DNA of 64,000 nucleotides from Anaerolineae bacterium (GCA_027021705.1 JALUTT010000181.1:1-64000), one strand, 5' to 3'; counted from the stretch's first letter, positions 48,643 to 64,000 are shown. The notes: a model not told the origin generated them from the letters alone. Numbers and translations: made by a program.

Positions 48643-51600
48643 CGTGGCGCACCTCTACGGTCACTTCCGCGTCGTCGGATAATTCGCTCAAGGCTCCCCA
48701 ACCTGTTGCGGGTTGGAGATTGACGGCTTCCAGCGCCTTTCGTAGAGCGCCAAAGCGGGCCTTGAATCTCAGCGGCTCGAAGGCCGGTGGAACAGGCGGC
48801 TTCTCCTCCTCCTGGTGCAACGTCTGGAGCTGCGTCAGTAGTTGGCTCCGCGGCATCTGCCCGGTGATGTACCGGGCGATGGCCTCCCGGGCTATTGCTT
48901 GCGACTCGGACTTCCGCAGCCCCTGGTACAGGTCCCGCATCTCCACGTCCTGCAGCCGGCCGACCATCTCGCGTGCCGCTTGGAGCATCTCCGGCAGGCT
49001 CTGGGGCGGAGCCGAGACCTTGGTCAGCCGGCGGATGCCGGCTTCCGAGGTAGGCTCTGCCAGCGCCCGGTCAATTGTTTCCAGGATGGCCGCGACCTGC
49101 TGCAGAGCCTGCTCCAGCTCTCGCGGGGCGCCCCCCAGCGGCTTGGCCGCTTCCGTCACCGCCTTGCGCAGTTGTCGGTATCCCTGCTCCTGTTGGGTGA
49201 AGAACTGCTGGAGGGAGGCCCAGGCCGCGTCCTGACGACGCACGCCGGGCTGGTCGGGGAGGGAGCCGGCGCCGATGGCCGCGTAGAAGGCGCTGAAGGC
49301 GGCCCACTCCCCGTGGCCCACCCGTTGGCCGGGGGTGAGCAGGTCGTTGCTGTGCAGGCTCAGTTGAGCCGGGTCCTCCACGGCCAGCGGCCCCCGCCCG
49401 CGCACAACCCGCAGGTCGCGAAAGATCACCGTCAGCCGGATCAGGAAATCGGCCAGGAAGGGTTGCAGGCCAAACTCTCTTCCCAGCCGGTTCTGCAGCT
49501 CCTTGACCCGCACGCCCTCCCCGCCTTTCAGGGCCTCCTCGATGGTCTGCACGTAGGGGGAGTTGCCCAGGTCCAGGGCATAGGCGGTGCCGGCGGGCTT
49601 GACGATGCGCAGGGGCATCCCGTAATGGGCAGCGTAATCGTGCGGCGGCCCCACCTCCGGCCCCACCCGGCCCTCTCCCTTGACCAGCGCCCGGTAGAGG
49701 CTCTCCAACGCCTGGGAGGTGACGTCGGCAGTGAACTCGGGATGTTGACGGAAGCGGGCGTCCAGCAGCCGCGCCCCCAGGTCCTTGAGAGCCTCCTGCA
49801 GCGTGGCCCCGGCCGAAGGGTTCTCGCCGATGCTCACCGAGGCGCTGAGCCGGCCCTGGCTGTAAAGGGAGGCTAGGCCGGCCAGCAGGCTCTCCCGCAA
49901 CTGAAAAGCCGCGGCCGTCCAGCTCTCCGTCAGCCGGCGTCCCTCCTCGCCGCTGTACTTCTCGGCGATGTAGGCCGTGCCCGCCGGGCTCTCGGTGAGG
50001 AAGAGGATGCGGGCCAGGTTGTCCAGCTGTTGACGCAGTTGATCGTCGGCCTCCTTGGGGATCCACACCGCGCCCGGCACACCGTTCTTGGGCGGCTTTG
50101 ACGGCACAGGGTCGCCGGGGAAGCGGGGGAAGGCGATCCAGACGGTGAACTCCGCCTTGGGGTCGGGCGGGGGAAGGTGGCCGGCGCCCGTCTCCACGGC
50201 TTGGACTGTCCCCGAGCGGTTGGTGCCGCGCCACTTGATGTTCAGCTTGCGCCGGCCCTGCAGCTTGTCGGTGCCGAAGAGGTTGTTCAGAAGCCCCAAC
50301 ACGGCCTGGCGGCGTTGCTCGGTCACGTCCTGGCTCACCTTGCGCAGCTCCGCCATAGGGTCGAGCCCCAGGCTCAGCTCCACCACCACCGCCTCGCCCT
50401 CGCGCTTGAAGGTGCCCAGCAGCCGGTCGCAGAGGAGGTCCACGACCTCCTCCAGTTGCTTGCGGGCCAGGATGACCACCTGGGCGTTGAGCACGGCGGC
50501 GTTGAGGGCCGCGATGACGGCGGGGGTCATGCGCCCGCGCAGGGGCGTCCCCTTGTCCGTCAGTTGGCCCAGGATGATGCTTTCCGCCACGGCCCGCCCT
50601 CGGGCGATGCGCTTGGCGTGGCCCAGGAAGTGTTCCTCCAGAAGAGGAACGACTTTGTCACGCATGATCACTTTGGCTGCCTGCAGCGCGGGCCGGTCTT
50701 TGAGCTCTCCCTCGGAGGCTTGCTCGATGAGGTAGTGGAAGGCGCGGTGGTAGGGAATGAGGGTGCCCAACGGCTCATCGGCCAGGTCGAAGAGCATATC
50801 GTACATGACGCTGATGGCGGTGCGTTCGCGGCTCAGCATGTGGGTCACCGAGACCAGGGTGTCCACGATGGCCGGATGGAAGGGGTAGAGGGCGCGGACG
50901 GCTTCCTCAAAGCGCTTGTGGCCGTAGAGTTGATGGAGCACCTCCAGTTGTTCGCCGGGGATCTGGGCCAGACTGGCTTTGACCGCTTCGTCCAGGGCTT
51001 TCTTGCGCCCCTTTACCGGCTTGAGGACGCGCTTGCCCAGCACCTCGTACAGGTCCACGTCTTGGATGTCTACGTCCCGTCCCGCGAAGCGCCCCTTGAC
51101 ATTGTCTAGGATGTCCCGGCCCACGTCGCGCACCACGTCCTCCAGGGGGGCGTGGCGCACCACCAGGGCCCAGACGGGGAGGGCGGCGCCCTCGGCCTCC
51201 AGAAGGGCCTTGAGTTCGACCATGGGCCGCGTGCGGTCTTTGGCGTTGATGAGGAAGAGGGTGAGTTCGTCAATGAGGAACGTGACGGCGGTGAAGCCGT
51301 GGTGCTTCAGGTGGGCGGTGATGCGCTTCATGCCCTCGGCCATCTCCACGGCGAAGGCGCCACCGCCCACCTCAGAAGGTAAGGCGATGTGCGAGGCGAT
51401 CTCGCGGGCCAGGAGTTCGCGGCCCTGGGGCGTGGCCTTCTGGGCCTCGTACTCCTGGCGGGAGGTCACCACCAGGCTGCGGTTGAAGAGGGTGTCCCAG
51501 AGGGCGGGGGTGTCGGCGGCCAGGTCCTCGAACCATCCGATGACGCGCTGGAAGTAGGTGAGTTCCACGGGGGGCAGGCCCTGGCGTTCCAGTTCGCGGG

Positions 51601-52015
51601 CGACGGCCTCGTAGAGGCCCAGGCGGAAGTCGTCGGGGCGGTCCAGGCTGTTGAAGGGCACCACGAAGACGGGGCGTTTCTCCAGGATGGCGCGCACGTC
51701 ATCCGAAAGGCCGGGGATCTCCCGCGCCCAGGCGGCGGACTCCCCGCGCAGGAGCATGCCGGCGAAGGAGAGGAAGTGGGACTTGCCGGTACCGAAGGAG
51801 CCACTGACCCAGACCCCCTGGCCGGGGAAGCCCTTGTCGGCGGACTCGGCCACGCTGCTCACCACGCGCCGCAGCCCCTCGGCCACGGTGTCGGTGATGA
51901 CGTACTCCCGGGCGTGGAAGACCTTGCGCTCCTCGTCGTTGATCTCGCCCACCTTGACCACCAGGGGTGGTTTGGTGGGTGGGATAGCGATGACGTCACG
52001 GATGTGGAGGGTCAT
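48629..52015 (-). CDS. PglY/BrxC-like P-loop ATPase
   Basis: YVITD, VSGSFGTGKSHFL, FLIDEL, YPFHPA..DTLVSV...LSRERTA (PglY-like); GAGGTGA RBS; overlaps pglZ. Confidence 0.85.
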   Translation of the reverse strand: MTLHIRDVIAIPPTKPPLVVKVGEINDEERKVFHAREYVITDTVAEGLRRVVSSVAESADKGFPGQGVWVSGSFGTGKSHFLSFAGMLLRGESAAWAREIPGLSDDVRAILEKRPVFVVPFNSLDRPDDFRLGLYEAVARELERQGLPPVELTYFQRVIGWFEDLAADTPALWDTLFNRSLVVTSRQEYEAQKATPQGRELLAREIASHIALPSEVGGGAFAVEMAEGMKRITAHLKHHGFTAVTFLIDELTLFLINAKDRTRPMVELKALLEAEGAALPVWALVVRHAPLEDVVRDVGRDILDNVKGRFAGRDVDIQDVDLYEVLGKRVLKPVKGRKKALDEAVKASLAQIPGEQLEVLHQLYGHKRFEEAVRALYPFHPAIVDTLVSVTHMLSRERTAISVMYDMLFDLADEPLGTLIPYHRAFHYLIEQASEGELKDRPALQAAKVIMRDKVVPLLEEHFLGHAKRIARGRAVAESIILGQLTDKGTPLRGRMTPAVIAALNAAVLNAQVVILARKQLEEVVDLLCDRLLGTFKREGEAVVVELSLGLDPMAELRKVSQDVTEQRRQAVLGLLNNLFGTDKLQGRRKLNIKWRGTNRSGTVQAVETGAGHLPPPDPKAEFTVWIAFPRFPGDPVPSKPPKNGVPGAVWIPKEADDQLRQQLDNLARILFLTESPAGTAYIAEKYSGEEGRRLTESWTAAAFQLRESLLAGLASLYSQGRLSASVSIGENPSAGATLQEALKDLGARLLDARFRQHPEFTADVTSQALESLYRALVKGEGRVGPEVGPPHDYAAHYGMPLRIVKPAGTAYALDLGNSPYVQTIEEALKGGEGVRVKELQNRLGREFGLQPFLADFLIRLTVIFRDLRVVRGRGPLAVEDPAQLSLHSNDLLTPGQRVGHGEWAAFSAFYAAIGAGSLPDQPGVRRQDAAWASLQQFFTQQEQGYRQLRKAVTEAAKPLGGAPRELEQALQQVAAILETIDRALAEPTSEAGIRRLTKVSAPPQSLPEMLQAAREMVGRLQDVEMRDLYQGLRKSESQAIAREAIARYITGQMPRSQLLTQLQTLHQEEEKPPVPPAFEPLRFKARFGALRKALEAVNLQPATGWGALSELSDDAEVTVEVRHDAEA

Positions 52016-52039
52016 GATTGTCACCTCACAACTCACAGA

Positions 52040-55000
52040 TCATAGCCAACTGCGTCTCTCCCATTCCTCTTCCGCCTGTTCGCGTTCGATCATTGACTGG
52101 AGCAAGTCAACCATGCGGCGTGCGAAGAGACGGACACGGAGATACTCATCCTCGAGCCACGGAGATATCGCTTCCAGGCGTTTTTGATAGAACGATACGA
52201 ATCCCGAAATAACGCCGGGGGTGCTACTGATCGCTCCTTCAACTTCACCGAGTACCTTCCGATCATCAGTGCGTCGGATGATCTCACGGCTCAGCTTGTA
52301 AAAGGCATCCCCTTCGTTGAATTCCCGTAAGATAGTGGCTGTAGCCCGGAGCTTTTCGACCTCATCGGACTCAACCCACTCCGTGAGCACCGCGTAGAGA
52401 GTCTTATCAAGGCCGCCGGCGATGGCCTTCAGTACATAGGGGGCTTCCCAGCGGAACCAGAAGTTTTCGCGCAGCATCCAATTGCGAACACGCCGTAGAA
52501 CGTCAGGGTACTCTTCGCTCTCGCGAATGCTTTCCATAGCTCGTGCAAACTGGAAGGGTACGGGTTCGTATCGTCTCTCTTGGGCCTCACGTTCATAAGC
52601 TATAGTGATGCGCTGCTCGATGAAGTCTATCACCTGCATCGGAGCAATTTGGCCCAATCTGTCCAGGCATCTTTCCACATGAAAGTCAAGCTGCGGTAAT
52701 CGTCCAAAGTGCTGAATGATCTCGAGAAAGTCTTGTGGGTCCTCGAACTCCACAGCCCAACCCTCCCCTGTGCTATCCGACCATGATAGTACCTCAGCAA
52801 TGTGCCGCAAGACAGCTTCGTCGCCACGAGCCGCAATAGTTTTGAGAACCTCAACCGCGAGAGCAGGGTTATGTGGTGCGTATTGCCGTGTCAGCCACAC
52901 CATCTCATGATCCAGGGCCGCTGTATTACAAGCCACGAGTTGGCGTAGCATCTCCCAGTCTTCATCCTCCATTTGACGCCAGTCCACAAACCGGAAGCTA
53001 TGCGCAGCAGCCAGCCAGAGGATCGCATCGCCGCTGGTGGTCCAATGTTTGAGGTATCTTTGCGCTATCTCGGGGACGCTTTTCCGCAATCCGGCAATCA
53101 CGAGCCCAAGGTGATGTTTAAGGGTCAACTCTTCAACTACGGCGCGGTCTATGAGCTGCTGGGCCAGATCAGGATGCTGTTCACCCAGACGCTGCAATAG
53201 CCGATTGAGCCAAGTAGTACCTGTTTCGCCAACAGTACGCGCTTGATGAGCAATTGTCTCCAAGTCGCGCAAAGCTCGATCAAAAGTGTCTGGCTTAAGC
53301 TGACCGAGGTAACGCTCGACAGCCTCCTGGCGCCGCCGCTCGGCTTCCCGCCAATCCAATTCCTTGTCCGGTTCCTCCGCGTCCCGGCGATGCCATCCAA
53401 CCAGCACTCGGTAAAGTTGATAGAGTTGATGGCTGTTAAGCCGCTCACTAAGGCGGTCCAACGCCTCATCTTCATAAGCAGCCCACCGTCTGGCATGCCA
53501 GAGCCATTCCGAGATTGCGTCCAGAACGGGAAGGTCCGCTGTCTCAACCACGTCAGAGAAGAAACGGGCAGTATTCACACAGTCAGGTCGAAGCCATTCA
53601 CGGATTTCATCTGGCACGCGAACTATTGAGGGGAAATGTGGGATCGCTCCATCCAGAGCCTGAACAATACGGAGTCGCTCAGCGGGAGAAGTTGCTTGAC
53701 GATATGCGTTATAGAGGATGTCTAGCGCCTGCTGTCGGATGTGTCTCAAGGGCTCGGCAGGAGTGAGCAGGCCCCGATGGAGGATCACTTTGAAAGGTTC
53801 CGTTGGATCGGCCTCAGCGCTATGTAACTCCATCGACAACATTGCTTCTACCAGTTTCAAGGCCAGGTCGAGGTTCTCCGTGAAATCCTCAGCCAGCCAC
53901 CGGGGAATGGCTTCCAGAAGCGTCAGTTGCACAGCATAGGGCTTGCGCGGCTTAAATTCGGCAATTTCAGTCAACACTTTGCGCGCTTCTTCTCTCACAT
54001 AGGCATAACTCGAATCGTGAGGGCAATATCTGGCAAGTTTATGCAAATAGGTGATAGTATCTCGCAAGGCGCTATACTGGGTGCGCTTCAGTATTTCGAC
54101 AGCCTGACCCAACACCATCTCGTGGCTAATCTCATAAGCACCACCCCAAGGGGCACGATAGGTCTCGGGAGGCTGTTCTCTGCCATCCACGATGCGGGCG
54201 ACGATCGCCAACGTATCGTCGGCTCTCAGATAAGCCACGTTCTGCAACCAATCGAGAATGGCATAGCGGGCTATGTTGCCTTGGGTATCGATAGCCCGAG
54301 ACAGTTCATCGAGTCTGCGACCCAAGAGCACACCTGCTTCACGGGATTCTCCCTTGACCTCTGCCTTGGCCAAGTTAGTCAGGATTTCTTTGGCTTTCAG
54401 ATCGAAGAATGGTTCGATGACTTGTTTTTGGTAGTCGGCGCGTCGAGTTGTGGGGTCAAAGTAGTGGCTCACCAGGATGTGGTCGGCCAAGACCTCAGAG
54501 GCGATCCGAATGGTCTGCCAGTAGCGATCTATTAGGCCTGACGCTTCCAGTCGTGTAACAATGCGTTCTTCTTCAGATGGTGAGATACCGACGACCTCTT
54601 GCACACGTTGGCGGAGAGTGTCGTTGGTCAGCTCAATTGTGCCCAGAGCAGCAAGGATTTCGAGATAGTGCACATATCGATCATCGTAGCCAGCCTCGGC
54701 CAAGTCACGGATGAGTTCATGAAAGTAGCGGGAAAGCACTTCATCTCTGGTAAGTCTGGTTACATCTTCGCCACGCTGAACCAGGCGTGCGCCCAATTGG
54801 GCGAGCAGCGGGTTACCTTCGGCCACAGCAATCAGTGCCCGACGCGCGTGCTGATCCTCGATATGGTAAGGTTCGCTTTGAAGCAGACGATCGATGTCAG
54901 CATTTGTCAGTGGACCAAGTTCCAAGTAAGCGATTTCATCCCCTGAGATTTGAGGGAAGCGAGCTGCTATATACTCAACGAATACGCTGCGTGTGCTGAG

Positions 55001-55633
55001 AATGAGTTTCACCTTACCGGCGTAGTCTGGATTAACCAGTACCTCGCGAAGGTGAGAAAGCGGCGTAAAACGATGGGCGTCATCCACGACGATTACGTGC
55101 TGTTGGTCCCGATCGAGAGTAGCCAAGTCGTATTCGATGCTTTCAGCTTCAGTGCGGGCGTACCACAGTTTGACATCTTCGGGAACGATCTCTGACAAGG
55201 CGAGTAGCAATCGAGTCTTACCGATACCCCCAGGACCATGAAGAACAATGATACGTTTTTGTTCTTGGAGCCATGCCGCCACTTGCTGAAGAGTCTGCTC
55301 CCGTCCCACCATTTCTCCCCTGTAGCATCCAAGCGCAGTTTGCTCAATCCGCACTGCAAAATCCTGAACTGTGAGTAAGGATCGAAATCCAGTATGAACG
55401 GCCTGCCATATAGCGACTGCATCTGGGCCTTTGATAATACAGACTATGTTGTTATCACCAGTTATAACGACAAGGTCGTGCGCGTCTCCTCCTAATGCCA
55501 CAGCCCGATCACCAGTGGCAAGGGTAATCCGTCCTGTTTGAAGGGCTTGGCGCAAGGTGGCGATGTCGGCATCAGTGTAGGTGCCGGCTGCAATGCGGTC
55601 GAGAACACGCTTCAATTCGTTAAACTCCGTCAT
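52040..55633 (-). CDS. STAND-class (NLR/Avs-like) ATPase with N-terminal EAD10-like helix and amyloid-like motif and a long helical-repeat C-terminus
   Basis: LHGPGGIGKTRL, IVVDDAH, ILSTR, EGNPLL; N-terminus ELKRVLDRIAAGTYTDADIATLRQAL + ATGDRAVALGG..VVITGDNNIV. Confidence 0.8.
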   Translation of the reverse strand: MTEFNELKRVLDRIAAGTYTDADIATLRQALQTGRITLATGDRAVALGGDAHDLVVITGDNNIVCIIKGPDAVAIWQAVHTGFRSLLTVQDFAVRIEQTALGCYRGEMVGREQTLQQVAAWLQEQKRIIVLHGPGGIGKTRLLLALSEIVPEDVKLWYARTEAESIEYDLATLDRDQQHVIVVDDAHRFTPLSHLREVLVNPDYAGKVKLILSTRSVFVEYIAARFPQISGDEIAYLELGPLTNADIDRLLQSEPYHIEDQHARRALIAVAEGNPLLAQLGARLVQRGEDVTRLTRDEVLSRYFHELIRDLAEAGYDDRYVHYLEILAALGTIELTNDTLRQRVQEVVGISPSEEERIVTRLEASGLIDRYWQTIRIASEVLADHILVSHYFDPTTRRADYQKQVIEPFFDLKAKEILTNLAKAEVKGESREAGVLLGRRLDELSRAIDTQGNIARYAILDWLQNVAYLRADDTLAIVARIVDGREQPPETYRAPWGGAYEISHEMVLGQAVEILKRTQYSALRDTITYLHKLARYCPHDSSYAYVREEARKVLTEIAEFKPRKPYAVQLTLLEAIPRWLAEDFTENLDLALKLVEAMLSMELHSAEADPTEPFKVILHRGLLTPAEPLRHIRQQALDILYNAYRQATSPAERLRIVQALDGAIPHFPSIVRVPDEIREWLRPDCVNTARFFSDVVETADLPVLDAISEWLWHARRWAAYEDEALDRLSERLNSHQLYQLYRVLVGWHRRDAEEPDKELDWREAERRRQEAVERYLGQLKPDTFDRALRDLETIAHQARTVGETGTTWLNRLLQRLGEQHPDLAQQLIDRAVVEELTLKHHLGLVIAGLRKSVPEIAQRYLKHWTTSGDAILWLAAAHSFRFVDWRQMEDEDWEMLRQLVACNTAALDHEMVWLTRQYAPHNPALAVEVLKTIAARGDEAVLRHIAEVLSWSDSTGEGWAVEFEDPQDFLEIIQHFGRLPQLDFHVERCLDRLGQIAPMQVIDFIEQRITIAYEREAQERRYEPVPFQFARAMESIRESEEYPDVLRRVRNWMLRENFWFRWEAPYVLKAIAGGLDKTLYAVLTEWVESDEVEKLRATATILREFNEGDAFYKLSREIIRRTDDRKVLGEVEGAISSTPGVISGFVSFYQKRLEAISPWLEDEYLRVRLFARRMVDLLQSMIEREQAEEEWERRSWL

Positions 55634-57072
55634 CAGTGGTCCCTCTCTTCACCTGTTTCTCTGGCCAAACGTGCTAGGTTATGAGACACGGTGTTTGCCA
55701 GTTCCTGATCGCCGGCCTGGATAGCTAGCCGTAAAGCCTCAGCGTAGAGAACTCGGGATCGAACGATGTCACCTTCAAATTGACAGGCCAAAGCCAAGTT
55801 GTTGAGTGCAATGGCTTCACCTTTCCGATTCGCGAGGCTCTGAAAAAGCTGGCGCGCTTGTTCAAGGTTTTCACGGGCCAGATGAAACTCTCGTTGGTGC
55901 AAATGGATTTCACCGATTGCTGCCAACGTATGAGCCTCGGCGTTCTTGTTGTTCAGCATACGCCATAGACTCAGTGCCTTCTTCCGATACGTGAGCGCCT
56001 CATCGAAGGCGTAGCGGGTCTGATGGATCGCAGCGATATTATCCAGCAGCGTAGCCTGTTCAACTTTGGACCCTAGCCCTTCAAAGAGTGTTAACGCTCG
56101 CTCGTTGTAGTCCAAAGCACGTTCAAAATCACCAATTGCACTGTAGAGGCTGCCCAGATTGGCTAGAGATATTGCTTCCTGCAAAGGAGCTCCGATCTCA
56201 CGGAAGATCTCCAGGGCCTGTTCGCTATAAAGCCGGGCCTTATCAAGTTGTCCTAGACACTGCGCCAGTTCACCCAGGTTTCCCAGAGCAACCGCTTCAT
56301 GGAAGCGATGACCCGTCTGGACAAAGAGTTCCAGTGCCCTGGAACCATAGGTTAACGCTTTGGAATACCACGCATCTCGTTCAGCTGATGAAACAACGTC
56401 TGCTTTGTTTCGACACGTAATTGCCAGATTGTTTAGTGTCGAGGCTATGGCGACCTGATCATCTTGAGTACGGTATAAAGCCAGTGCTTGTTCATAGAAC
56501 GAGATGGCATCGTCCCATTGCTCTAAATCGGCATAAGCCCGGCCCATGTTCTGCAAAACGGTTGCTTCGCCTGAAGAGTCACCTTCGACACGGAAGAGTT
56601 GCAATGCTTGTTCGTAATAGTGCAAGGCTCCAGTTATTTTACCCTCAGCCTGGGATACTAATCCCAGCCCGTTAAGAGCCCTGGCCTGGCAAGGACGGTC
56701 ATCCAATTGACGAAAGATGGTCAGCGCCTGCTCATAACATTCACGGGCTCGAGACCACTCGCTCAGTGTATACCACGCAGCACCCAGGTTATTCCAGAGA
56801 GCACCCACGTCGTGGGTTTGACCCTGGTTTTGCGCGGCAGCGAGCCCGCGTTGATACCATGCAATGGCTTCCCGCCACAAAGCGCGTTGCTCAAGAAAGG
56901 GGCGCACTGCCCATACGTAGGCTAATATTAGCCCTGCATCACCGTTGATGTCGTTCACCCAGGTCCAAGCACGGCGAATTTGCTCCAATTCACCTTCAAG
57001 CCGCTGCCAGTCACCAGGGTTAGATTGGATCAGGGAAAGATAATAGTACGCGTACCGTTCCCAGGCACTCAC
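55633..57072 (-). CDS. Stand-alone TPR-repeat protein (sensor 3)
   Basis: ~40-aa repeats A..LNNLG..Y..L.....A...YEQAL; GTG start; TGATG coupling to the STAND gene. Confidence 0.9.
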   Translation of the reverse strand: MSAWERYAYYYLSLIQSNPGDWQRLEGELEQIRRAWTWVNDINGDAGLILAYVWAVRPFLEQRALWREAIAWYQRGLAAAQNQGQTHDVGALWNNLGAAWYTLSEWSRARECYEQALTIFRQLDDRPCQARALNGLGLVSQAEGKITGALHYYEQALQLFRVEGDSSGEATVLQNMGRAYADLEQWDDAISFYEQALALYRTQDDQVAIASTLNNLAITCRNKADVVSSAERDAWYSKALTYGSRALELFVQTGHRFHEAVALGNLGELAQCLGQLDKARLYSEQALEIFREIGAPLQEAISLANLGSLYSAIGDFERALDYNERALTLFEGLGSKVEQATLLDNIAAIHQTRYAFDEALTYRKKALSLWRMLNNKNAEAHTLAAIGEIHLHQREFHLARENLEQARQLFQSLANRKGEAIALNNLALACQFEGDIVRSRVLYAEALRLAIQAGDQELANTVSHNLARLARETGEERDH

Positions 57073-57074
57073 GT

Positions 57075-58598
57075 TTAACCGGTCGTTGATATCTGCTCCA
57101 AACGTTCTCGAAGTTTGGTCAGGTGAAAAGCATGTTGCTCTACCTCAGGATCACCGACTGATCGTTCGTAATCCACAACAATTTGGAGAAGTTCCACTGC
57201 ACGCGGTAAATCGCCTGCGCGTTCGTATAACCGGCTTAGGTCCCAGGTGTAGATCGCTTCCCCTCCCTTATCTCCGATCTCGCGAGCGATATGTCGTGCC
57301 TGTTCATAGTACTCTAATGCCTTCTGGATATCTCCCAACTGCCAGTAGACCAATCCCAGCCGGCTCAACCGGATGCTTTCTCCCCATCTATCGCCTATGT
57401 CACGAGCAATCTTCAAGGCTCGTTGGTAATATTCGATAGCCTTGGACGTGTCGCCCAAATCCTGCAGAATGCGGCCCAGATTGCTGAGCCACGCCCCCTC
57501 GTTTTGCCGGTCACCCACACGGTGAGCAATTTCCAGGGCTTGTTCGTAACAGTGTGTAGCTTCTTGCCACTCGCCCAGGTCAGCGTACGCCATTCCCAGG
57601 ATACCCAAGCGAGCCCCTTCTGCTTGTAAATCTCCAATCTCCCTGGCAATCTCCACAGCACGTTTAACGTACTCAATCGCCCTGTCCGGATCGCCCAGAA
57701 CAAGATACGTTCGGCCCAGGTTACTCAGCCACGTCCCCTCACTCAGCCGGTCACCAATGTCACGGGCTATCTGCAACGCCTGCTTGAAACATTCAATAGC
57801 CTTTTGCCAGTCTCCCAGGTCAAGCCAGCCACGCCCCAGATTGCCCAACCAGACCCCCTCATTTCGACGGTCACCCGTGTCACGGGCAAACCGAAGAGCC
57901 CGCTCATAGTACGAGATAGCCGTTCGCACTTCTCCCAGGTCAGCATAGGCGAGACCCAGATTCCCCAGATCAGCTCCTTCGCTGCGCCGATCCCCTATCT
58001 CTCGATCAATCGCCAATGCTTGTTCGAAGCAGGAGATGGCTCGTTGGGTCTCTCCCAAGCTCAGGAGGGCCAACCCAAGATTACCTAGCCAGATAGATTC
58101 CTGTTTGCGGTTCTGTAACTCGTGGTGAATCGTCAGGGCCGCCTCAAAGTGCCGGATAGCTTTGTCAATCTCCCCAATGTCTAAGTAAACCAGCCCCAAG
58201 TTGCCCAGACGGCTACCTTCTGCGCCCCGATCACCAACATCCTGTGCAATTCGCAGAGCCTGTTCATAACACTCGATGGCCTTGCGTGCTTCGCCAAGGC
58301 GGTAATACGCTAATCCCAGGTTCGCCAACATTACACCCGCTACCTGATTACCGTTCGGAAGTGTTCTTGCCACCACCAAGCCTCGCTCATTCCAAGCGAT
58401 GGCCTCCAGCCACAGTCCGCGCATCTCCTGAAAGGGGAAGAAAGCTTGAACGTAAGCCAGGACCAAATCCTTGTTCTCCTCTTTGCTCACCCAGGCCCAG
58501 GCACGACGAATCTGGTCGAGCTCACGTTCGACCGCTTGCCAATCGCCGTTTTGAGTCACTGCCAGATAGTAGCGCGCGTGCCGCTCACGGGGGCTCAT
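57075..58598 (-). CDS. Stand-alone TPR-repeat protein (sensor 2)
   Basis: Regular 40-aa repeats GDR..EG..LGNLG..Y..LG....AI..YEQAL.IAR; start MSPRERH, ATGA-coupled. Confidence 0.9.
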   Translation of the reverse strand: MSPRERHARYYLAVTQNGDWQAVERELDQIRRAWAWVSKEENKDLVLAYVQAFFPFQEMRGLWLEAIAWNERGLVVARTLPNGNQVAGVMLANLGLAYYRLGEARKAIECYEQALRIAQDVGDRGAEGSRLGNLGLVYLDIGEIDKAIRHFEAALTIHHELQNRKQESIWLGNLGLALLSLGETQRAISCFEQALAIDREIGDRRSEGADLGNLGLAYADLGEVRTAISYYERALRFARDTGDRRNEGVWLGNLGRGWLDLGDWQKAIECFKQALQIARDIGDRLSEGTWLSNLGRTYLVLGDPDRAIEYVKRAVEIAREIGDLQAEGARLGILGMAYADLGEWQEATHCYEQALEIAHRVGDRQNEGAWLSNLGRILQDLGDTSKAIEYYQRALKIARDIGDRWGESIRLSRLGLVYWQLGDIQKALEYYEQARHIAREIGDKGGEAIYTWDLSRLYERAGDLPRAVELLQIVVDYERSVGDPEVEQHAFHLTKLRERLEQISTTG

Positions 58599-60019
58599 CT
58601 CGTCCTTCCCCTGCGCATGAAACGCCGTGCTATTTGTGCAAGACGAGCAAGAGGTTTCTGGATGTTTCGCTTCGCTGCCGGCCCCGTTTGTTCCTGAGCT
58701 GGCCACTCAGGCGATTCATTGACCTGTATCAAGGTGCTCTCTCGTTCCAGAACGAGACTGCGATTCCGGCGAATAACCGCGCTAAGGTGTTCATCTCCGA
58801 TTTCTTGAGCAAGGCTCAAAGCCTGTTCATAATACATTACCGCCCGATGTTCCTTGCCTAGACCTTCGGCAAGATTGCCCATTGCCGCCAGCAAGCGCGC
58901 TTCCATCTGCTTCTGTCCTATTTCCCGGCTTATGCGCAACGCTTGCTCGTAGTATCGAGCTGCCCTTTCGAGTTTGCCCAGACGATGATAAGCCTGTCCA
59001 AGGCTCGCAAGCCGACCACCTTCGACAACCCTGTTGCCTATGTGGCGTGCAGCAACCAGGTTCTGCTCAAAACACTGAATAGCACGCTCAATCTCACCTG
59101 TTTCCAGGTAAATATCACCAAGACCGCCTAATAGATCGCTCTCTTGAATCCTGTCACCCATTAAACGCGCCAAATTCAATGCATCCTCAATAAGTTCTAC
59201 CGCCTTTGAAAGGTTACCTTCTATCCGAGCAATACTTGCCAGGCTATACAAAAACCCTATCTCCAGGTCCTGATCTCCTGCCAAGAGAGCGTGCTTCAAT
59301 CCTTTTCGGTATGTTTGGCGTGCTTTGCGCCAATTGCCAACATCGAGGAGTGCATTCCCTCTCATCTGGAGTGCAAGCGCGATAGATCTATGATCACGCT
59401 GCTTAGAAGCAAGAACATACATCTGTCTTTGCAGTCTTTCCGCCTGACGTAGATTACCCAGGCGACGGAAGGCGCTTTCCATGCTCATCAAGGCAACAAA
59501 CTCTGTCTGCCAGTCTTTGGCGTTCTGCGCCAGAATCTGTGCACGTTTGTAGCATTCAAACGCTTTTGTTGTATCCCCCATCGCCAAATAGGCACTACCA
59601 AGCCGCAAAAGTATCAGGGATACAATACGGTTCCCGTGTTGCTCTAGAGACACGGATGAGAGGAGCGAATAGGCTCGCTCACAGCAATCGGCAACCTGCT
59701 TTGAATCGCCCAGGTTGTCGTGGACTTCACTGAGTCGCAAAAGAGAGAAAAGTTCGGCGATTTTGTCCTGTTTGCTCCGCGTTACCTCTAGCTCGCGCTG
59801 TGTCCATTCAAGCGCCTCTTTCCACAGACCGCGCAGTTGTAAGTGCGGATAGAACGTTTCTACGTAATCCGATAGCAGTTGCGGATCCCCTTGAGCAGCA
59901 ACCCAATTCCACGCATGCCTTATTTGCGGCCATTCGGCGTCGAACCATTGCCAATCCTTAAGATGGGCTTTGGCATATTCCAGGTAAAATCGAGCGTGTC
60001 GTTCCAGCACCTTGCTCAT
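58595..60019 (-). CDS. Stand-alone TPR-repeat protein (sensor 1)
   Basis: TPR-like repeats (LGSAY..G...KA..CY; LGQAYHRLG..ERA..YYEQAL); ATGA-coupled to the NB-ARC gene. Confidence 0.88.
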   Translation of the reverse strand: MSKVLERHARFYLEYAKAHLKDWQWFDAEWPQIRHAWNWVAAQGDPQLLSDYVETFYPHLQLRGLWKEALEWTQRELEVTRSKQDKIAELFSLLRLSEVHDNLGDSKQVADCCERAYSLLSSVSLEQHGNRIVSLILLRLGSAYLAMGDTTKAFECYKRAQILAQNAKDWQTEFVALMSMESAFRRLGNLRQAERLQRQMYVLASKQRDHRSIALALQMRGNALLDVGNWRKARQTYRKGLKHALLAGDQDLEIGFLYSLASIARIEGNLSKAVELIEDALNLARLMGDRIQESDLLGGLGDIYLETGEIERAIQCFEQNLVAARHIGNRVVEGGRLASLGQAYHRLGKLERAARYYEQALRISREIGQKQMEARLLAAMGNLAEGLGKEHRAVMYYEQALSLAQEIGDEHLSAVIRRNRSLVLERESTLIQVNESPEWPAQEQTGPAAKRNIQKPLARLAQIARRFMRRGRTR

Positions 60020-61164
60020 AGTCCCATCTTTTCCATCATTTCCGCCGCATAGTCGGCCAGCAGCGCATGCATCCAGTAGCGCTCGCCCCGACGCTCCACC
60101 AGACCGCGTTGGATAAAGCGCGAGATGGTCGCTTCAGCTTCTTCCACCGAACATTCCCACACATGAGCAGCAGCCTTGATCTCCCACGTAAGTGGCTCGC
60201 CGCCGAAGACGGCCAGCATGGCAAAGCGTTCTTGGTCGGTCTTGCTCAGCCGCTCCACGCTCATCCCCAGAATCGCCTGAAGGGAGACGGGTTGGTCTTC
60301 GGCCAGACCTAGGCGTCCTTCCGCCTGGAGCAGCTGCAAACGGGCTTCCCGGTGCTCCATGAGCTCATCCAGCAGCCGTTGCATCCGCGTTGGCACGTCA
60401 GCCTCGCTGGCTAGCAACCGCCCTGCCAAGGTCAGAGCCAAAGGCAGGAACTCTAGCCGTTCACAGAGACGCATTGCGTTTTGCTCATCAGCGGCAACAG
60501 CTTCGGGTGCCAAGCGGCGTAATAGTGCCAGAGCAGCCTCCGGTTTCAGCACATCTACCCGCAGTGTCCGTCCGCGTGTGGCCAATGTATAAGCAATGGG
60601 TGCCTCACGGGTGGTAAGGACCGTACGACAACGAGGACCGGCGACCATGAAGTACTGACCGTGGGTTACCTCCCAAACATCATCCACAATCAGCAGCACG
60701 CGTCGGTGATAAAGAACGGCCCGGAGACGATCACGACAGGCATTCTCATCGCGCTCTGGTAGCAAATCTACCCCAAGGGCCCGACCCCACCCATCGAGGA
60801 GGATGCGAATGGTTGGGTTAGGCCCCAAGGCTACCCAAAGCACACCATCGGGGAAGAGCTTGGGAATGATCTCTAACCGTCCTAAGGCGATGGCTAGGGT
60901 TGTCTTGCCGATGCCGCCCATCCCACGCAGAGCTACTGGGGGGATATCAGTCGCCTGCTCATCATCAAGAGCCAGCAGGTCGAACAAGCGAGTCAGGTCC
61001 TCGTCACGGCCGAGAACACCCTGGGGTGGGAGCGGCGGCGTCATAAACGGTGGCGGCGTTCGCGTTGCTGGCATACCGACGGTAGCAGCCGCTTGGTCAC
61101 CGATAGCTAGGCCGTAGACGGTGCCATGAATCGTCACCTTGTGCCGATCGAGTTCGTTGCTCAT
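60016..61164 (-). CDS. NB-ARC protein lacking a C-terminal sensor domain, with N-terminal amyloid-like motif
   Basis: LGRDEDL, LRGMGGIGKTTLA, FPDGVLWV, LLIVDDVW, VLTTR, FLPLAL, YWMHALL, then a stop 13 residues later. Confidence 0.9.
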   Translation of the reverse strand: MSNELDRHKVTIHGTVYGLAIGDQAAATVGMPATRTPPPFMTPPLPPQGVLGRDEDLTRLFDLLALDDEQATDIPPVALRGMGGIGKTTLAIALGRLEIIPKLFPDGVLWVALGPNPTIRILLDGWGRALGVDLLPERDENACRDRLRAVLYHRRVLLIVDDVWEVTHGQYFMVAGPRCRTVLTTREAPIAYTLATRGRTLRVDVLKPEAALALLRRLAPEAVAADEQNAMRLCERLEFLPLALTLAGRLLASEADVPTRMQRLLDELMEHREARLQLLQAEGRLGLAEDQPVSLQAILGMSVERLSKTDQERFAMLAVFGGEPLTWEIKAAAHVWECSVEEAEATISRFIQRGLVERRGERYWMHALLADYAAEMMEKMGL

Positions 61165-61220: not shown

Positions 61221-61763
61221 TCAGGATTCGCTTGCTTCTCCAGATGCTGGTGGTTCAGCTCCTTCTACGTTCACATTAACCAGTGCCTGGTTGCCAAGAG
61301 CCATCCCCCTGGCTTCGCCGACATTCACGCTGTATTTCCCCTGTTGCACCACGTTCTGGTCACCGGTCACGATGATGCTGCCTTCAATCTTTCTAGCTGC
61401 CACGCTGTGTTCACCGCTAGCAATTACGGTTACGCCCATAGCCTTTGCCTTTTCCCACAATTGGGCCACTTCAGCAGCCAGTTCTTCGTCCTCGGACAGG
61501 ATTTTCCTGAGTTGCAGGCGCAGGGCGGCTTGGGCGTCCCCATCTTTCGGCGCTGCGGCCACATCCTGCACTGCTTCCCGTGCCGCTGGCTTGGCCTCCA
61601 CCTTGGAGCGCAGTTTGCCCCACAGCGCCTTGGCTTTCTCCCAGGCGTCGCCACCCAGTTTCTTGCCTGCTTCCTCAGTCGCTCTTTCACCTGCCTTGAG
61701 CAGGTAAGGCAAGAAAGGGGTAAGAAAAGCGGCTACGTCCTTCGCCAGCATTGCTATGTCCAT
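61221..61763 (-). CDS. Small helical Bell/HeLo-like putative effector with two C-terminal amyloid-like motifs
   Basis: FLTPFLPYLLKAGE..EEAGKKLG.DAWEKAKALW helical domain followed by a G/N/Q/V-rich beta-type tail. Confidence 0.7.
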   Translation of the reverse strand: MDIAMLAKDVAAFLTPFLPYLLKAGERATEEAGKKLGGDAWEKAKALWGKLRSKVEAKPAAREAVQDVAAAPKDGDAQAALRLQLRKILSEDEELAAEVAQLWEKAKAMGVTVIASGEHSVAARKIEGSIIVTGDQNVVQQGKYSVNVGEARGMALGNQALVNVNVEGAEPPASGEASES

Positions 61764-61778: not shown

Positions 61779-64000
61779 TTATCCCATCACCACATACGGA
61801 TACGGCTCCACGTCCCCGATGATGCTCCGCAGCCCCTCCCGTACCTCCGGATCCTCGATGTCCGGCGCCTCTTCCGGCAAAGTGATGAGCCGGGCCACCC
61901 AGCGGTAGAAGGGCGTTTTGTCCTGGGCCTCTTCCGCCAGGGTGAGGAAGATGTTGGCCTGGGCCTCCGGGCTCCACCCCGTCCAGCCGTACAAATCCCG
62001 ATTGACGCCGTCGAAGCGGAAGAAGCGCTCGTGGAGGACGTCTACCTTCTTGGGCTTGCGGCCCACCAGCACTTTCTCCTCGTCGAAAGGGATGGGCCGG
62101 CAGTCCCAGTCCATGCACTCGCGCACGAACTGCTCCGCCGAAATGGGCCGGCCGCCGTAGTAGACCGCCCGCAGGGGCTCGAACTTGGGGTTTCGCGCCA
62201 GAATACCGGCGACCTCTGCCGGGGTGAGCGGCCGCTCCCGCAACGGCGGCTGGGCGGCGAAGATGTCTTCGATGAGGTCGCAGATGTAGTCGCGGATTTC
62301 GAACTGCATCTCTTTATGCCAATCGAAATCGTGAAGGAGATCCGAGGATTCCCAATCTGCTAATGCCGAGACGACCTCCTCTTCAAGTTGATAAATGTCT
62401 CGCACGCAGCCATCGACTTCTCTTTGTAGTTCCACCCACCTTTGAGCAAGTTGCTCAAGATTGCCGCGATATGCTTGCTGGCGAGTTTGTAAGTCGGCTA
62501 GTGACTCGAAATGCACGTCTCGTATCAGGTGATACGGATGTAACGCGTTGATCTGCTCCACGAGGCTTGTCATTTCTTGTGAAAGTGCTATCAGTGTCTC
62601 GGCTGCAGTTCCATCTGGCACTGGGATCGGGAACCCTTTGATGTGATGGCCATAGATGTCGAAATACTGCTGGCGCACCCGGCTTGCCGTTCTCGCCACG
62701 TAGAAAGCAAACAAAGACGAATTCATCAACGCTGCCAAATGGAAAGTAAGTTCCCCTTCATCCAATTTCGGGTACGCAACCTGGGCTGGATGATCCACCA
62801 AGAATCGGCCTATACTGTCACCGAAGGCATGTGGGCGCAACACCACGCTGGGCCAGGCAATCTTCGGCACGCCCAGGCGGGCGTTGGTCTGATGGAGCCG
62901 GAAAAAGGGGATGCCAGCGTCCTTGTAAGTCATCCGTTCCCAGGTGGCTCGCGCCCAAAGATATTCCTTGTACCTCAGTAGGTAACGGTAAGCGTTGGGA
63001 TACCGTTCGGCGAAATCGGCGATAAGTTCGCCTGTCTCCTTATCATGGGTGTAAAGCACATACGTCTGCTCCTTCTTCCGGTTCCCGTGCCAAGTGACGG
63101 TCCAGTTGCGGATGTTCTTCCCCCGCAGGCAGGGGATGCAGATTTCCCGCTCCAGCTTGTTCCGGCGGATGAAGCTCTCCGTGATGTAGTCGCAGAAGAC
63201 CGGGTCGGCGTTGGTCATGAAGTCCACACCGATGCGCGCGTAGTCGGCCAGGGTCTTGTCGGAGGCGGCCCGGATTTTGCCCAGCAGGTCGCGGGCGCTG
63301 CGGCGCAGGGTCCAGGGATGAGAGCGGAAGTGCTCCTGCCGCTCCCAATAGTGACCGGCATAGTCCTTGAAGACGGCACCCCCTCCCCGGCCCTCCCACC
63401 CCCCTCCGGCTCCCCCCTGAGAGGGGGGAGTGAGCAGGCAGTGCAGGGCGGCCCATGTCTCCTCTCGCGTCCGGCCCGCCGGCTGGTAGGTGGCCAGCAC
63501 CTCCACCGGCGCATCGGCGGGCACGGGGGCATCGTCCTCCGGCCGCTGCACCACGATGAGGGCGGGGTAGGCGCCGGCCTCGAAGACCTGGGCGTCGGTC
63601 AGGTCGGCGAAGAAGAGCAGGCGGTAACGCTCGCCCGCCAGCAGCGCGGCCAGCTTCTTGCCATAGGCCTGCTTGGCGAACTTGCCGCTGGTGATGTAGC
63701 CCAGGTAGCCACCGGGCACCAGCAGTTCCAGCCCCCGTTCGACAAAGGGTACCGAGAGGTCAAAGTTGCCACTGGCTGTCTTGTAGTTTGTGCGCAGGTA
63801 CTGGACGAAGTCCACCCGCTCCCAACTGCCGTTCACCGGTGCGACCACCTCGGCCCCCTGACGGTGGATGCGCACGTAGGGCGGGTTGGCGTTGACCACG
63901 TGGAAGCCCTTGGCCAGGGCGTCCCGCAGGTCCACCCGCAGGTGGGTTAGCTCCCGGCCGTACCAGCGGGCCACAGGGTCCGTCTCCCGGCGGGGCGGCC
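61779..64000 (-). CDS. PglX-like / type IIG N6-adenine DNA methyltransferase, 5' part outside the window
   Basis: GFHVVNANPPY, DLSVPFVERGLELL..GG.LGYITS.KF, LRGKNIRNW, AALMNSSL (TaqI-C-like); frame is open to the window edge. Confidence 0.85.
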   Translation of the reverse strand, partial: PPRRETDPVARWYGRELTHLRVDLRDALAKGFHVVNANPPYVRIHRQGAEVVAPVNGSWERVDFVQYLRTNYKTASGNFDLSVPFVERGLELLVPGGYLGYITSGKFAKQAYGKKLAALLAGERYRLLFFADLTDAQVFEAGAYPALIVVQRPEDDAPVPADAPVEVLATYQPAGRTREETWAALHCLLTPPSQGGAGGGWEGRGGGAVFKDYAGHYWERQEHFRSHPWTLRRSARDLLGKIRAASDKTLADYARIGVDFMTNADPVFCDYITESFIRRNKLEREICIPCLRGKNIRNWTVTWHGNRKKEQTYVLYTHDKETGELIADFAERYPNAYRYLLRYKEYLWARATWERMTYKDAGIPFFRLHQTNARLGVPKIAWPSVVLRPHAFGDSIGRFLVDHPAQVAYPKLDEGELTFHLAALMNSSLFAFYVARTASRVRQQYFDIYGHHIKGFPIPVPDGTAAETLIALSQEMTSLVEQINALHPYHLIRDVHFESLADLQTRQQAYRGNLEQLAQRWVELQREVDGCVRDIYQLEEEVVSALADWESSDLLHDFDWHKEMQFEIRDYICDLIEDIFAAQPPLRERPLTPAEVAGILARNPKFEPLRAVYYGGRPISAEQFVRECMDWDCRPIPFDEEKVLVGRKPKKVDVLHERFFRFDGVNRDLYGWTGWSPEAQANIFLTLAEEAQDKTPFYRWVARLITLPEEAPDIEDPEVREGLRSIIGDVEPYPYVVMG

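Follow-up and report, generated by a model that had tools for sequence, protein, structure and literature searches.

A cluster of four minus-strand genes in a 64,000-nucleotide stretch of DNA from Anaerolineae bacterium (GCA_027021705.1, JALUTT010000181.1:1-64000; hereafter 'the window') probably encodes a naturally split receptor of the NOD-like receptor (NLR) type, NOD being the nucleotide-binding oligomerization domain. This would be a signal transduction ATPase with numerous domains (STAND) that receives its arm and tetratricopeptide repeat (TPR) sensor in trans, in a horizontally acquired defence island within a BREX (bacteriophage exclusion)-like operon. The first gene encodes an NB-ARC switch that stops just after its winged helix, and each of the three genes that follow encodes an arm-position segment (the 'head') joined to a TPR sensor. 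In the canonical NLR/STAND architecture the NOD and the repeat sensor share a single polypeptide, an arrangement that the NB-ARC protein lacks. To our knowledge, every characterised STAND/NLR receptor combines its switch, arm and sensor in a single polypeptide, and its autoinhibition is intramolecular.

Results

A switch that ends at its winged helix

The split set comprises the following features:

60016..61164, minus strand: stand-alone NB-ARC switch, 382 amino acids, with an N-terminal motif, a proline-rich linker, the nucleotide-binding domain (NBD), helical domain 1 (HD1) and a winged helix (Pfam NB-ARC)
58595..60019, minus strand: TPR1, 474 amino acids, arm-position head and TPR sensor; recombinant (first-position head, B-type body)
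59774..60019, minus strand: TPR1 head, residues 1-82 (head alignment, profile search)
57075..58598, minus strand: TPR2, 507 amino acids from the ATG at 58598, arm-position head and about ten regular 40-residue TPR units
58353..58598, minus strand: TPR2 head (head alignment)
55633..57072, minus strand: TPR3, 479 amino acids, GTG start, arm-position head and TPR sensor
56827..57072, minus strand: TPR3 head (head alignment)

Pfam matches NB-ARC over residues 71-274 of the switch with 86.9 bits (cut-off 23.5, E 1.6e-24), and Apaf-1 residues 150-447 are collinear with residues 77-375 (E 3.5e-14). Residues G81, G83, G84, G86, K87 and T89, D161 and D162, T184, T185 and R186, L240, P241 and L242, and H366 are invariant in 62 sequences of the clade described below; these columns correspond to the Walker A/P-loop (GxxGxGKT), Walker B (hhhhDD), a TTR motif, a GLPL-like LPL and an MHD-like histidine. 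By Pfam score, motifs and Apaf-1 collinearity, the protein is thus classed from its sequence as an NB-ARC (AP-ATPase) STAND NTPase. An earlier note on this DNA had the open reading frame (ORF) ending just after the MHD-like motif, and so it does: the C-terminus reads ...YWMHALLADYAAEMMEKMGL, with the stop 15 residues past the histidine. The collinear segment of Apaf-1 ends at residue 447, the point where the winged helix ends and helical domain 2 (HD2, the 'arm') begins. Examined as a possible docking element in trans, the C-terminal tail of the NB-ARC protein has columns conserved at 40-87% within the split clade, a narrow set, against 19-50% for the linker of the fused proteins, a much wider one.

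The effector, NB-ARC, TPR1-3 and second STAND genes of the window are tightly packed, all on the minus strand. NB-ARC and TPR1 overlap by ATGA (60016-60019), as do TPR1 and TPR2 (58595-58598); at the TPR2/TPR3 junction (57070-57077) a TAA stop is followed by two bases and a GTG start, and TPR3 overlaps the STAND gene by TGATG at 55633. For TPR2 the homologous, coupled start is the ATG at 58598, although the longest ORF would start at GTG 58706. All four junctions are spanned with 0 gaps by contigs 93-97% identical to the window from X2, a sequencing run of another study; contigs of run X1 are identical to the window, and X1 is probably the source run; X2 is an independent run. The NB-ARC/TPR1 junction, singled out in the earlier note as needing a check in reads, is therefore present in independent data.

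The three TPR proteins can be aligned from residue 1, with 42-58% identity over the first 82 columns and 20-31% beyond, in keeping with the earlier description of three ORFs with homologous, coupled starts that then diverge. Many TPR families of Pfam match TPR1-3, and PADLOC yields generic TPR models alone for them. TPR2 has a periodicity of 120 nucleotides at 57270-58340; its units are 60-76% identical in DNA, too diverged to register in Tandem Repeats Finder, which gives no sign of recent concerted evolution.

Conservation of the split

A search for homologues of similar length returned 527 matches, and among the 120 listed (62-100% identical) all but one, a truncated entry of 337 residues, stop 0-3 residues after the end of the query (119/120); the TPR head is absent from all 120 listed close homologues. 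A search for longer proteins returned 291 matches, and 10 of the 12 nearest relatives (P0122-P0131, 56-68% identical) have N-terminal domains added (TIR, caspase, kinase, DUF4062, PNP, metallophosphatase, HATPase-like) and the same endpoint. Genuine NB-ARC-TPR fusions lie at 46% identity or below, except for P0121, which is fused, 70% identical, and retains the TPR gene's own Met-Ser start at the junction. Because it keeps this methionine and is nested in the split clade, P0121 is a secondary re-fusion or an indel. An in-frame NB-ARC-TPR fusion, of the kind that the earlier note had named as evidence against a split, occurs among close relatives in P0121 only. P0132 (1579 residues, with a 56% identical NB-ARC of the clade) has a 1260-residue C-terminal extension without the TPR head, possibly a different sensor that was captured.

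A FastTree phylogeny, a method that readily joins long branches, was computed for 169 NB-ARC domains, 70 of them from sensor-less proteins and 99 from proteins whose tail is 150 residues or longer. The split forms fall into one clade with support 100, which comprises 62 sensor-less rows and, nested among these, P0121 and P0132. Six state changes are needed on this tree, against a mean of 54 after shuffling, and 0 of 500 shuffles were as low. A second sensor-less clade of eight rows (P0147, P0151, P0152, P0160, P0162, P0173, P0177 and P0180), 33-36% identical to the query, also ends right after the winged helix; its members have alpha/beta-hydrolase or HATPase-like N-terminal domains, and one is named from Mesorhizobium waimense.

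Loci were assigned to the clade at an NB-ARC identity of at least 62%, and came from genome contigs (6 loci, 5 in the clade), metagenome contigs (287 relatives, best 80, 13 in the clade) and genome G354. Downstream DNA is available for 19 clade loci, the window included (L016 has none; L008 and L009 are near-duplicates). In all 19, head-bearing ORFs lie directly 3' of the NB-ARC stop, and their number runs from 1 to at least 4, as the earlier note had anticipated in expecting homologous loci with variable numbers of TPR genes:

Three head-bearing downstream ORFs: window, L001, L008, L009, L011, L013, L015, L091
Two head-bearing downstream ORFs: L003, L010
One head-bearing downstream ORF: L017
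Four downstream and one upstream head-bearing ORFs: L007 (first truncated, last cut by the contig end)
At least two head-bearing ORFs: L002, L014, L023 (contig end or little downstream DNA)
At least one head-bearing ORF: L012, L018 (contig end or little downstream DNA)
Broken arrays: L004 (fragmented ORFs with two head matches), L005 (a single short ORF with a head)

The conserved stop, the layout common to the 19 loci and the single split clade argue for a functional, conserved gene fission rather than a broken NLR, the conclusion to which the earlier note had come. At L004 (11144-15679, in the complete chromosome CP059258.1) what follows the clade NB-ARC is a set of TPR genes broken up into many ORFs of 100-340 residues; the fragmentation at L004 and L005 would reflect either decay of the array into pseudogenes or assembly indel errors.

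The organism's own genome (5.19 Mb, guanine-plus-cytosine (GC) content 0.66) holds a single split set, that of the window. Its other NB-ARC-like ORFs are 1049-1477 residues long from stop to stop and distant (E 1e-7 to 5e-38): C51 9887-13036, C92 84766-87915, C144 47675-52108 and C37 27596-30892. Searches of plasmids and of viral contigs gave no close relative, the best identities being 36% and at most 32%.

The head of the TPR proteins

A profile built from the window's three heads recovers the N-termini of TPR genes at other loci (i-E down to about 1e-33) as well as the segment that follows NB-ARC in fused proteins (down to 3e-24); the similarity of the heads therefore exceeds chance. It matches 57 of 100 long fused relatives. 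In 55 of the 57, the gap between the last residue aligned to NB-ARC and the start of the match is 0-10 residues, in agreement with the earlier note's placement of this segment immediately behind the MHD motif of fused proteins. The head coincides with the gene's own start codon (Met or Val, head position 1) at nearly every locus. A 26-head profile searched against 1.84 billion representative sequences gave 606 matches, 218 of them at 1e-10 or better; among the best 150 of the 606, the head is N-terminal in 69 (68 of which start with M; many are short, truncated entries) and lies right after NB-ARC in 56, and the remaining 25 are fragments or have over-called starts. Against PDB sequences the head profile found no solved relative, just weak consensus-TPR matches at profile positions 55-78.

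From its placement after NB-ARC in 55 of 57 fused proteins and the end of the NB-ARC protein at Apaf-1 residue 447, the head is identified as the ancestral segment of about 80 residues at the arm (HD2) position of single-chain relatives. The 'docking domain' of the earlier note thus survives as a common, homologous head, but not as a new device. In single-chain TPR STANDs (PMC6468293), autoinhibition comes mainly from the arm, which packs against the winged helix and the NBD.

Turnover of the sensor genes

Between the window and 11 other loci the NB-ARC protein is 62-90% identical, and the best TPR match 27-74%; at L002 a 90% identical NB-ARC stands against TPR proteins of 28-38%. In a quick IQ-TREE analysis of 27 full TPR proteins (partial, duplicate or broken entries were left out: L002_2, L007_4, L009, L012, L013_3, L014_2, L018, L023, L004, L005, L091), the body of TPR1 groups with the second genes L008_2, L007_2 and L011_2 (support 100), TPR2 with L007_3, L011_3 and L001_2 (support 99), and TPR3 with L008_3 (support 100). 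The cassettes are therefore orthologous, with their order kept and with gains and losses.

TPR1 is a recombinant. Its residues 1-37 are nearest to first-position genes (L002_1, 27/37; L001_1, 24/36), whereas residues 38-82 are nearest to second-position, B-type genes (L008_2, 26/45; first-position genes, 7-16/45), and DNA identity to L002 and L008 is 72-88% from NB-ARC through about 59901 and about 53-60% thereafter. The breakpoint lies near 59900 (about codon 40), inside the conserved head, and the pattern is compatible with a deletion by recombination within it. Cassettes have been gained, lost and recombined, and related loci differ in the number and identity of their TPR genes. Of the modular, expandable sensor repertoire proposed in the earlier note, the variation in number and identity of the cassettes is borne out, and the cassettes may act as alternatives. 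Contigs of X2 and X3 that are 93-97% identical to the window diverge to unrelated sequence at 61062, about codon 34 of NB-ARC, and in these relatives the N-terminal motif and the upstream region have been exchanged.

A candidate effector and a second STAND NTPase

Upstream of the switch lies a small gene on the same strand, 56 nucleotides away, and downstream of TPR3 a second STAND gene:

61221..61763, minus strand: candidate effector, 180 amino acids (ORF), with a helical N-domain followed by two beta motifs of the EAD10 type in the C-terminal tail
61248..61454, minus strand: effector residues 104-172, the two motifs; in local alignments the first matches the STAND N-terminus and the second the NB-ARC N-terminus
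61054..61161, minus strand: adaptor motif resembling the EAD10 core, NB-ARC residues 2-37 (aligned with the tail of the effector)
52040..55633, minus strand: second, single-chain STAND NTPase, 1197 amino acids, with EAD10 (effector-associated domain 10) at its N-terminus, then a P-loop NTPase, then a C-terminal part of helical/HEAT-like character

Effector residues 104-139 align to residues 28-64 of the STAND protein, within its N-terminal EAD10, and residues 136-172 to NB-ARC residues 2-37; in neither case did any of 2000 shuffles reach the score. The window's effector therefore has two motifs, each of which matches a different NTPase of the operon, and the second STAND and the split NB-ARC may share it. 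Pfam scores EAD10 at 37.4 bits on the STAND protein (cut-off 24.1), which also has weak nSTAND5/6, AAA_16 and HEAT_2 matches, and at 26.8 bits on the effector homologue P0393, exactly over the second motif. An N-terminal motif similar to that of the window's NB-ARC occurs in 33 of 50 clade members with a short N-terminus.

The N-domain of the effector is linked to the clade in other ways. The N-terminus of P0027, fused to a clade NB-ARC, is 50% identical to effector residues 1-135 (E 4e-39), and L001 and L004 have the same N-domain joined directly to an NB-ARC of the clade. The effector family yielded 718 matches, none named by any source, and PADLOC gives nothing for the effector. The family has two forms, one of about 142 residues with a single C-terminal motif and one of about 171 with two. 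In the Atlas, the N-domain lies near small actinobacterial and cyanobacterial proteins, and the nearest clusters contain HetE-N in 15-22% and RHIM in 12-19% of members. Other relatives have different upstream genes: EAD10 with CHAT (L002), CHAT alone (L008) and caspase (L010).

An island in a BREX-like setting

The island spans about 52.0-61.8 kb, with a GC content of about 0.50-0.60 against 0.64-0.73 in its flanks. A PglX-like gene bounds it on one side, and genes like those for BrxC/PglY, PglZ and BrxL on the other; the gaps at its two ends measure 15 and 3 nucleotides. The immediate neighbours are:

61779..64000, minus strand, continuing past the window to contig position 65168: PglX-like methyltransferase (PADLOC PglX, Eco57I match)
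48629..52036, minus strand: BrxC/PglY-like ATPase (PADLOC BrxC), starting 3 nucleotides after the STAND stop

PADLOC gives E values of 7.7e-83 for PglX (over the whole ORF), 6.9e-62 for BrxC, 1.7e-36 for PglZ and 2e-111 for BrxL; the NCBIfam matches fall below curated cut-offs (PglZ_2, 131.7 against 200; PglY, 104.5 against 1700; BrxC likewise), and the BREX-like gene order is atypical. The part of the PglX-like gene at 62000-63000, encoding the C-terminal part, also has a low GC content. A tRNA scan and a repeat search found no tRNA and no att-like or flanking direct repeat at the island borders, and no Rfam RNA gene was found. A scan for promoters and terminators gave no minus-strand site in the island and fewer sites overall than in shuffled sequence, and is weak evidence.

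Discussion

How the split receptor might work

If the window encodes a split receptor, each NB-ARC molecule would bind one arm-TPR subunit non-covalently, through the winged-helix/NBD-to-arm contacts that single-chain STANDs use in cis, and the arm would keep the switch closed. A ligand, probably a phage protein, that binds the TPR of that subunit would withdraw the arm and permit nucleotide exchange by NB-ARC followed by oligomerisation. The clustered N-terminal motifs would then recruit or activate the upstream 180-residue effector via its matching C-terminal motif, and the infected cell would be killed or arrested. Three diverged paralogues would widen the sensing range of one switch, and recombination in the conserved head would swap or delete cassettes.

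More tentatively, the system may be a combinatorial innate-immune receptor: a NOD chassis without an arm of its own, silenced and aimed by any one of its exchangeable arm-TPR subunits, the set of which would vary from strain to strain. Recombination inside the arm would add, remove and rebuild specificities with the switch left untouched, and removal or sequestration of a subunit would fire the switch in a guard-like manner. In this possible scheme a small membrane-type effector would be common to two NLRs by way of tandem EAD10-type motifs.

Several points weigh against a split immune receptor that works in this way. TPR binding to NB-ARC, autoinhibition in trans, the ligands and the activity of the effector are inferred; the equivalence of the head and a structural arm is positional only; and the data do not distinguish alternative sensors from a joint hetero-complex. 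EAD10 scores 20.7 bits on the window's effector, below the cut-off of 24.1, the N-terminal motif of NB-ARC has no Pfam match, and the effector N-domain matches no Pfam family at E values up to 1; a Bell-like nature of this domain is a lead from the Atlas. No PADLOC family, the Avs and NLR models included, matches the NB-ARC protein. Many clade members have N-termini of the XRE-type helix-turn-helix (HTH) or BTAD kind, and the clade may therefore include regulators and not immune receptors alone. Finally, the clade was found in just 3 of 401 sampled genomes of the phylum, its own included (at most 4 candidates were scored per genome), and the comparative depth comes mostly from metagenome contigs.

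Other readings

The split could be real without the TPR proteins being alternative sensors: they might form a joint hetero-complex, or one might be the partner and the others decoys, inhibitors or buffers that compete for its site. The three TPR genes are translationally coupled in one unit, and their products are therefore probably made together; most loci keep two or three members in conserved order, and a head conserved in all paralogues would entail competition for one surface. Against a joint complex, the number of members varies among loci, from one through two and three to four or more, and TPR sets differ even where NB-ARC is 88-90% identical, which fits independent modules better than a fixed obligate complex. 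We consider this arrangement unlikely, and the split receptor with its sensors in trans the better account.

It is improbable that the NB-ARC protein is instead a STAND of the signalling or transcription type (AfsR/MalT-like), with TPR proteins that sense endogenous signals and have no part in immunity. The HTH and BTAD N-termini of clade members would suit such a role, AfsR is the closest solved NB-ARC-TPR protein by sequence, and the best partial NCBIfam matches are to AfsR, FxSxx-TPR and HaaT models, all far under their cut-offs. The window's copy, however, has no DNA-binding domain in Pfam, and it keeps company with an EAD10-type effector partner and BREX-like neighbours in a low-GC island; close relatives have TIR, caspase, CHAT, PNP and DUF4062 domains.

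Expression of NB-ARC and TPR1 as a single chain by ribosomal frameshifting, with the overlap as a recoding site, is very improbable. No stop interrupts the TPR1 frame over the 38 codons upstream of its ATG (stop-to-stop ORF 58595-60133), and P0121 provides one natural in-frame fusion; but the junction has no slippery heptamer, the C-terminal peptide varies between loci at the sole A-rich codon, a Met or Val start stands at head position 1 in nearly all loci (and M in 68 of 69 N-terminal-head representatives), and TPR2 and TPR3 have the same layout with other types of junction. Least credible is a broken or mis-assembled NLR, a pseudogene or the product of a sequencing indel, for which the fragmented TPR ORFs at L004 and L005 might be cited, but which fits neither the stop kept in 119 of 120 listed homologues, the layout of the 19 loci and the intact catalytic motifs, nor an independent run without indels at the junctions.

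Relation to known systems

Single-chain TPR STANDs (PH0952, PDB 6MFV; MalT; AfsR, PDB 8K60/8JKE) have the same order of NBD, HD1, winged helix, arm-position segment and TPR, whereas here the chain is cut between winged helix and arm, and arm and sensor form a separate gene present in three diverged copies. Kaur et al. 2020 (PMC7159879) describe STAND conflict systems of multicellular bacteria that are coupled through EADs. In the window EAD10 sits on the second STAND NTPase, and the small effector may carry it as well, its own score lying below the cut-off and that of its homologue P0393 above; effector domains vary among relatives, and the organisms concerned here are Chloroflexota. In the available portions of that paper, effectors and adaptors are given as separate genes, and a TIR-AP-ATPase is encoded apart from a TPR-bearing vWA protein; an NB-ARC gene with an array of arm-TPR genes behind it, as seen here, is not among the layouts described in those portions.

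The Bell/BASS pairs of Dyrka et al. 2020 (bioRxiv 10.1101/2020.01.06.895854) are similar, in the text available, in that a C-terminal motif of the effector matches the N-terminus of an adjacent, collinear NB-ARC protein. The effector is, as here, a small helical protein, and the same helical domain is fused to NB-ARC in relatives. The window's pair differs in its EAD10-like motif, for which amyloid formation would be a prediction, and in its N-domain, a candidate Bell domain through a lead from the Atlas. The logic proposed here also resembles that of Avs (antiviral STAND) phage sensors (a Nature 2026 paper and preprint), in which, with a phage protein bound to the TPR-like sensor, the NTPase forms oligomers and the effector fires; Avs proteins, however, are single chains whose PADLOC models do not match this NB-ARC, and in the accessible part of the Nature 2026 paper split proteins appear in a methods sentence only.

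We found no published account in which an NB-ARC gene precedes an array of arm-TPR genes, each encoded separately, although figures and bioRxiv supplements, which lay outside the search, might show such neighbourhoods. In the plant NRC network and in NAIP-NLRC4, one signalling hub serves several sensors, each of which is itself a complete NLR and activates a helper NLR. The sensor subunits described here, by contrast, have no NTPase and would complete a sensor-less switch.

If the arrangement is as proposed, with arm and sensor provided in trans, the separate parts could be mixed to test autoinhibition by the arm directly; the arrangement would also offer a cheap evolutionary path to a wider range, by duplication or exchange of a 1.5-kb cassette rather than a whole NLR, as well as a modular scaffold for sensor engineering. 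Surveys that define an NLR as a single protein with NB-ARC and repeats would undercount bacterial NLRs in Chloroflexota; the definition given by Dyrka et al. (bioRxiv 10.1101/2020.01.06.895854), in the text available, is NB-ARC or NACHT with TPR or WD in one protein.

A second, unrelated P-loop ATPase of about 464 residues, followed by one to four TPR genes, occurs at three of the clade loci (L003 886-7400, L007 5279-8313 and L004 14359-18426). It has a weak AAA_16 match alone and no sequence relative in PDB, and its TPR genes share an N-terminal head of their own; the same split design therefore seems to occur in another family, in the same neighbourhoods.

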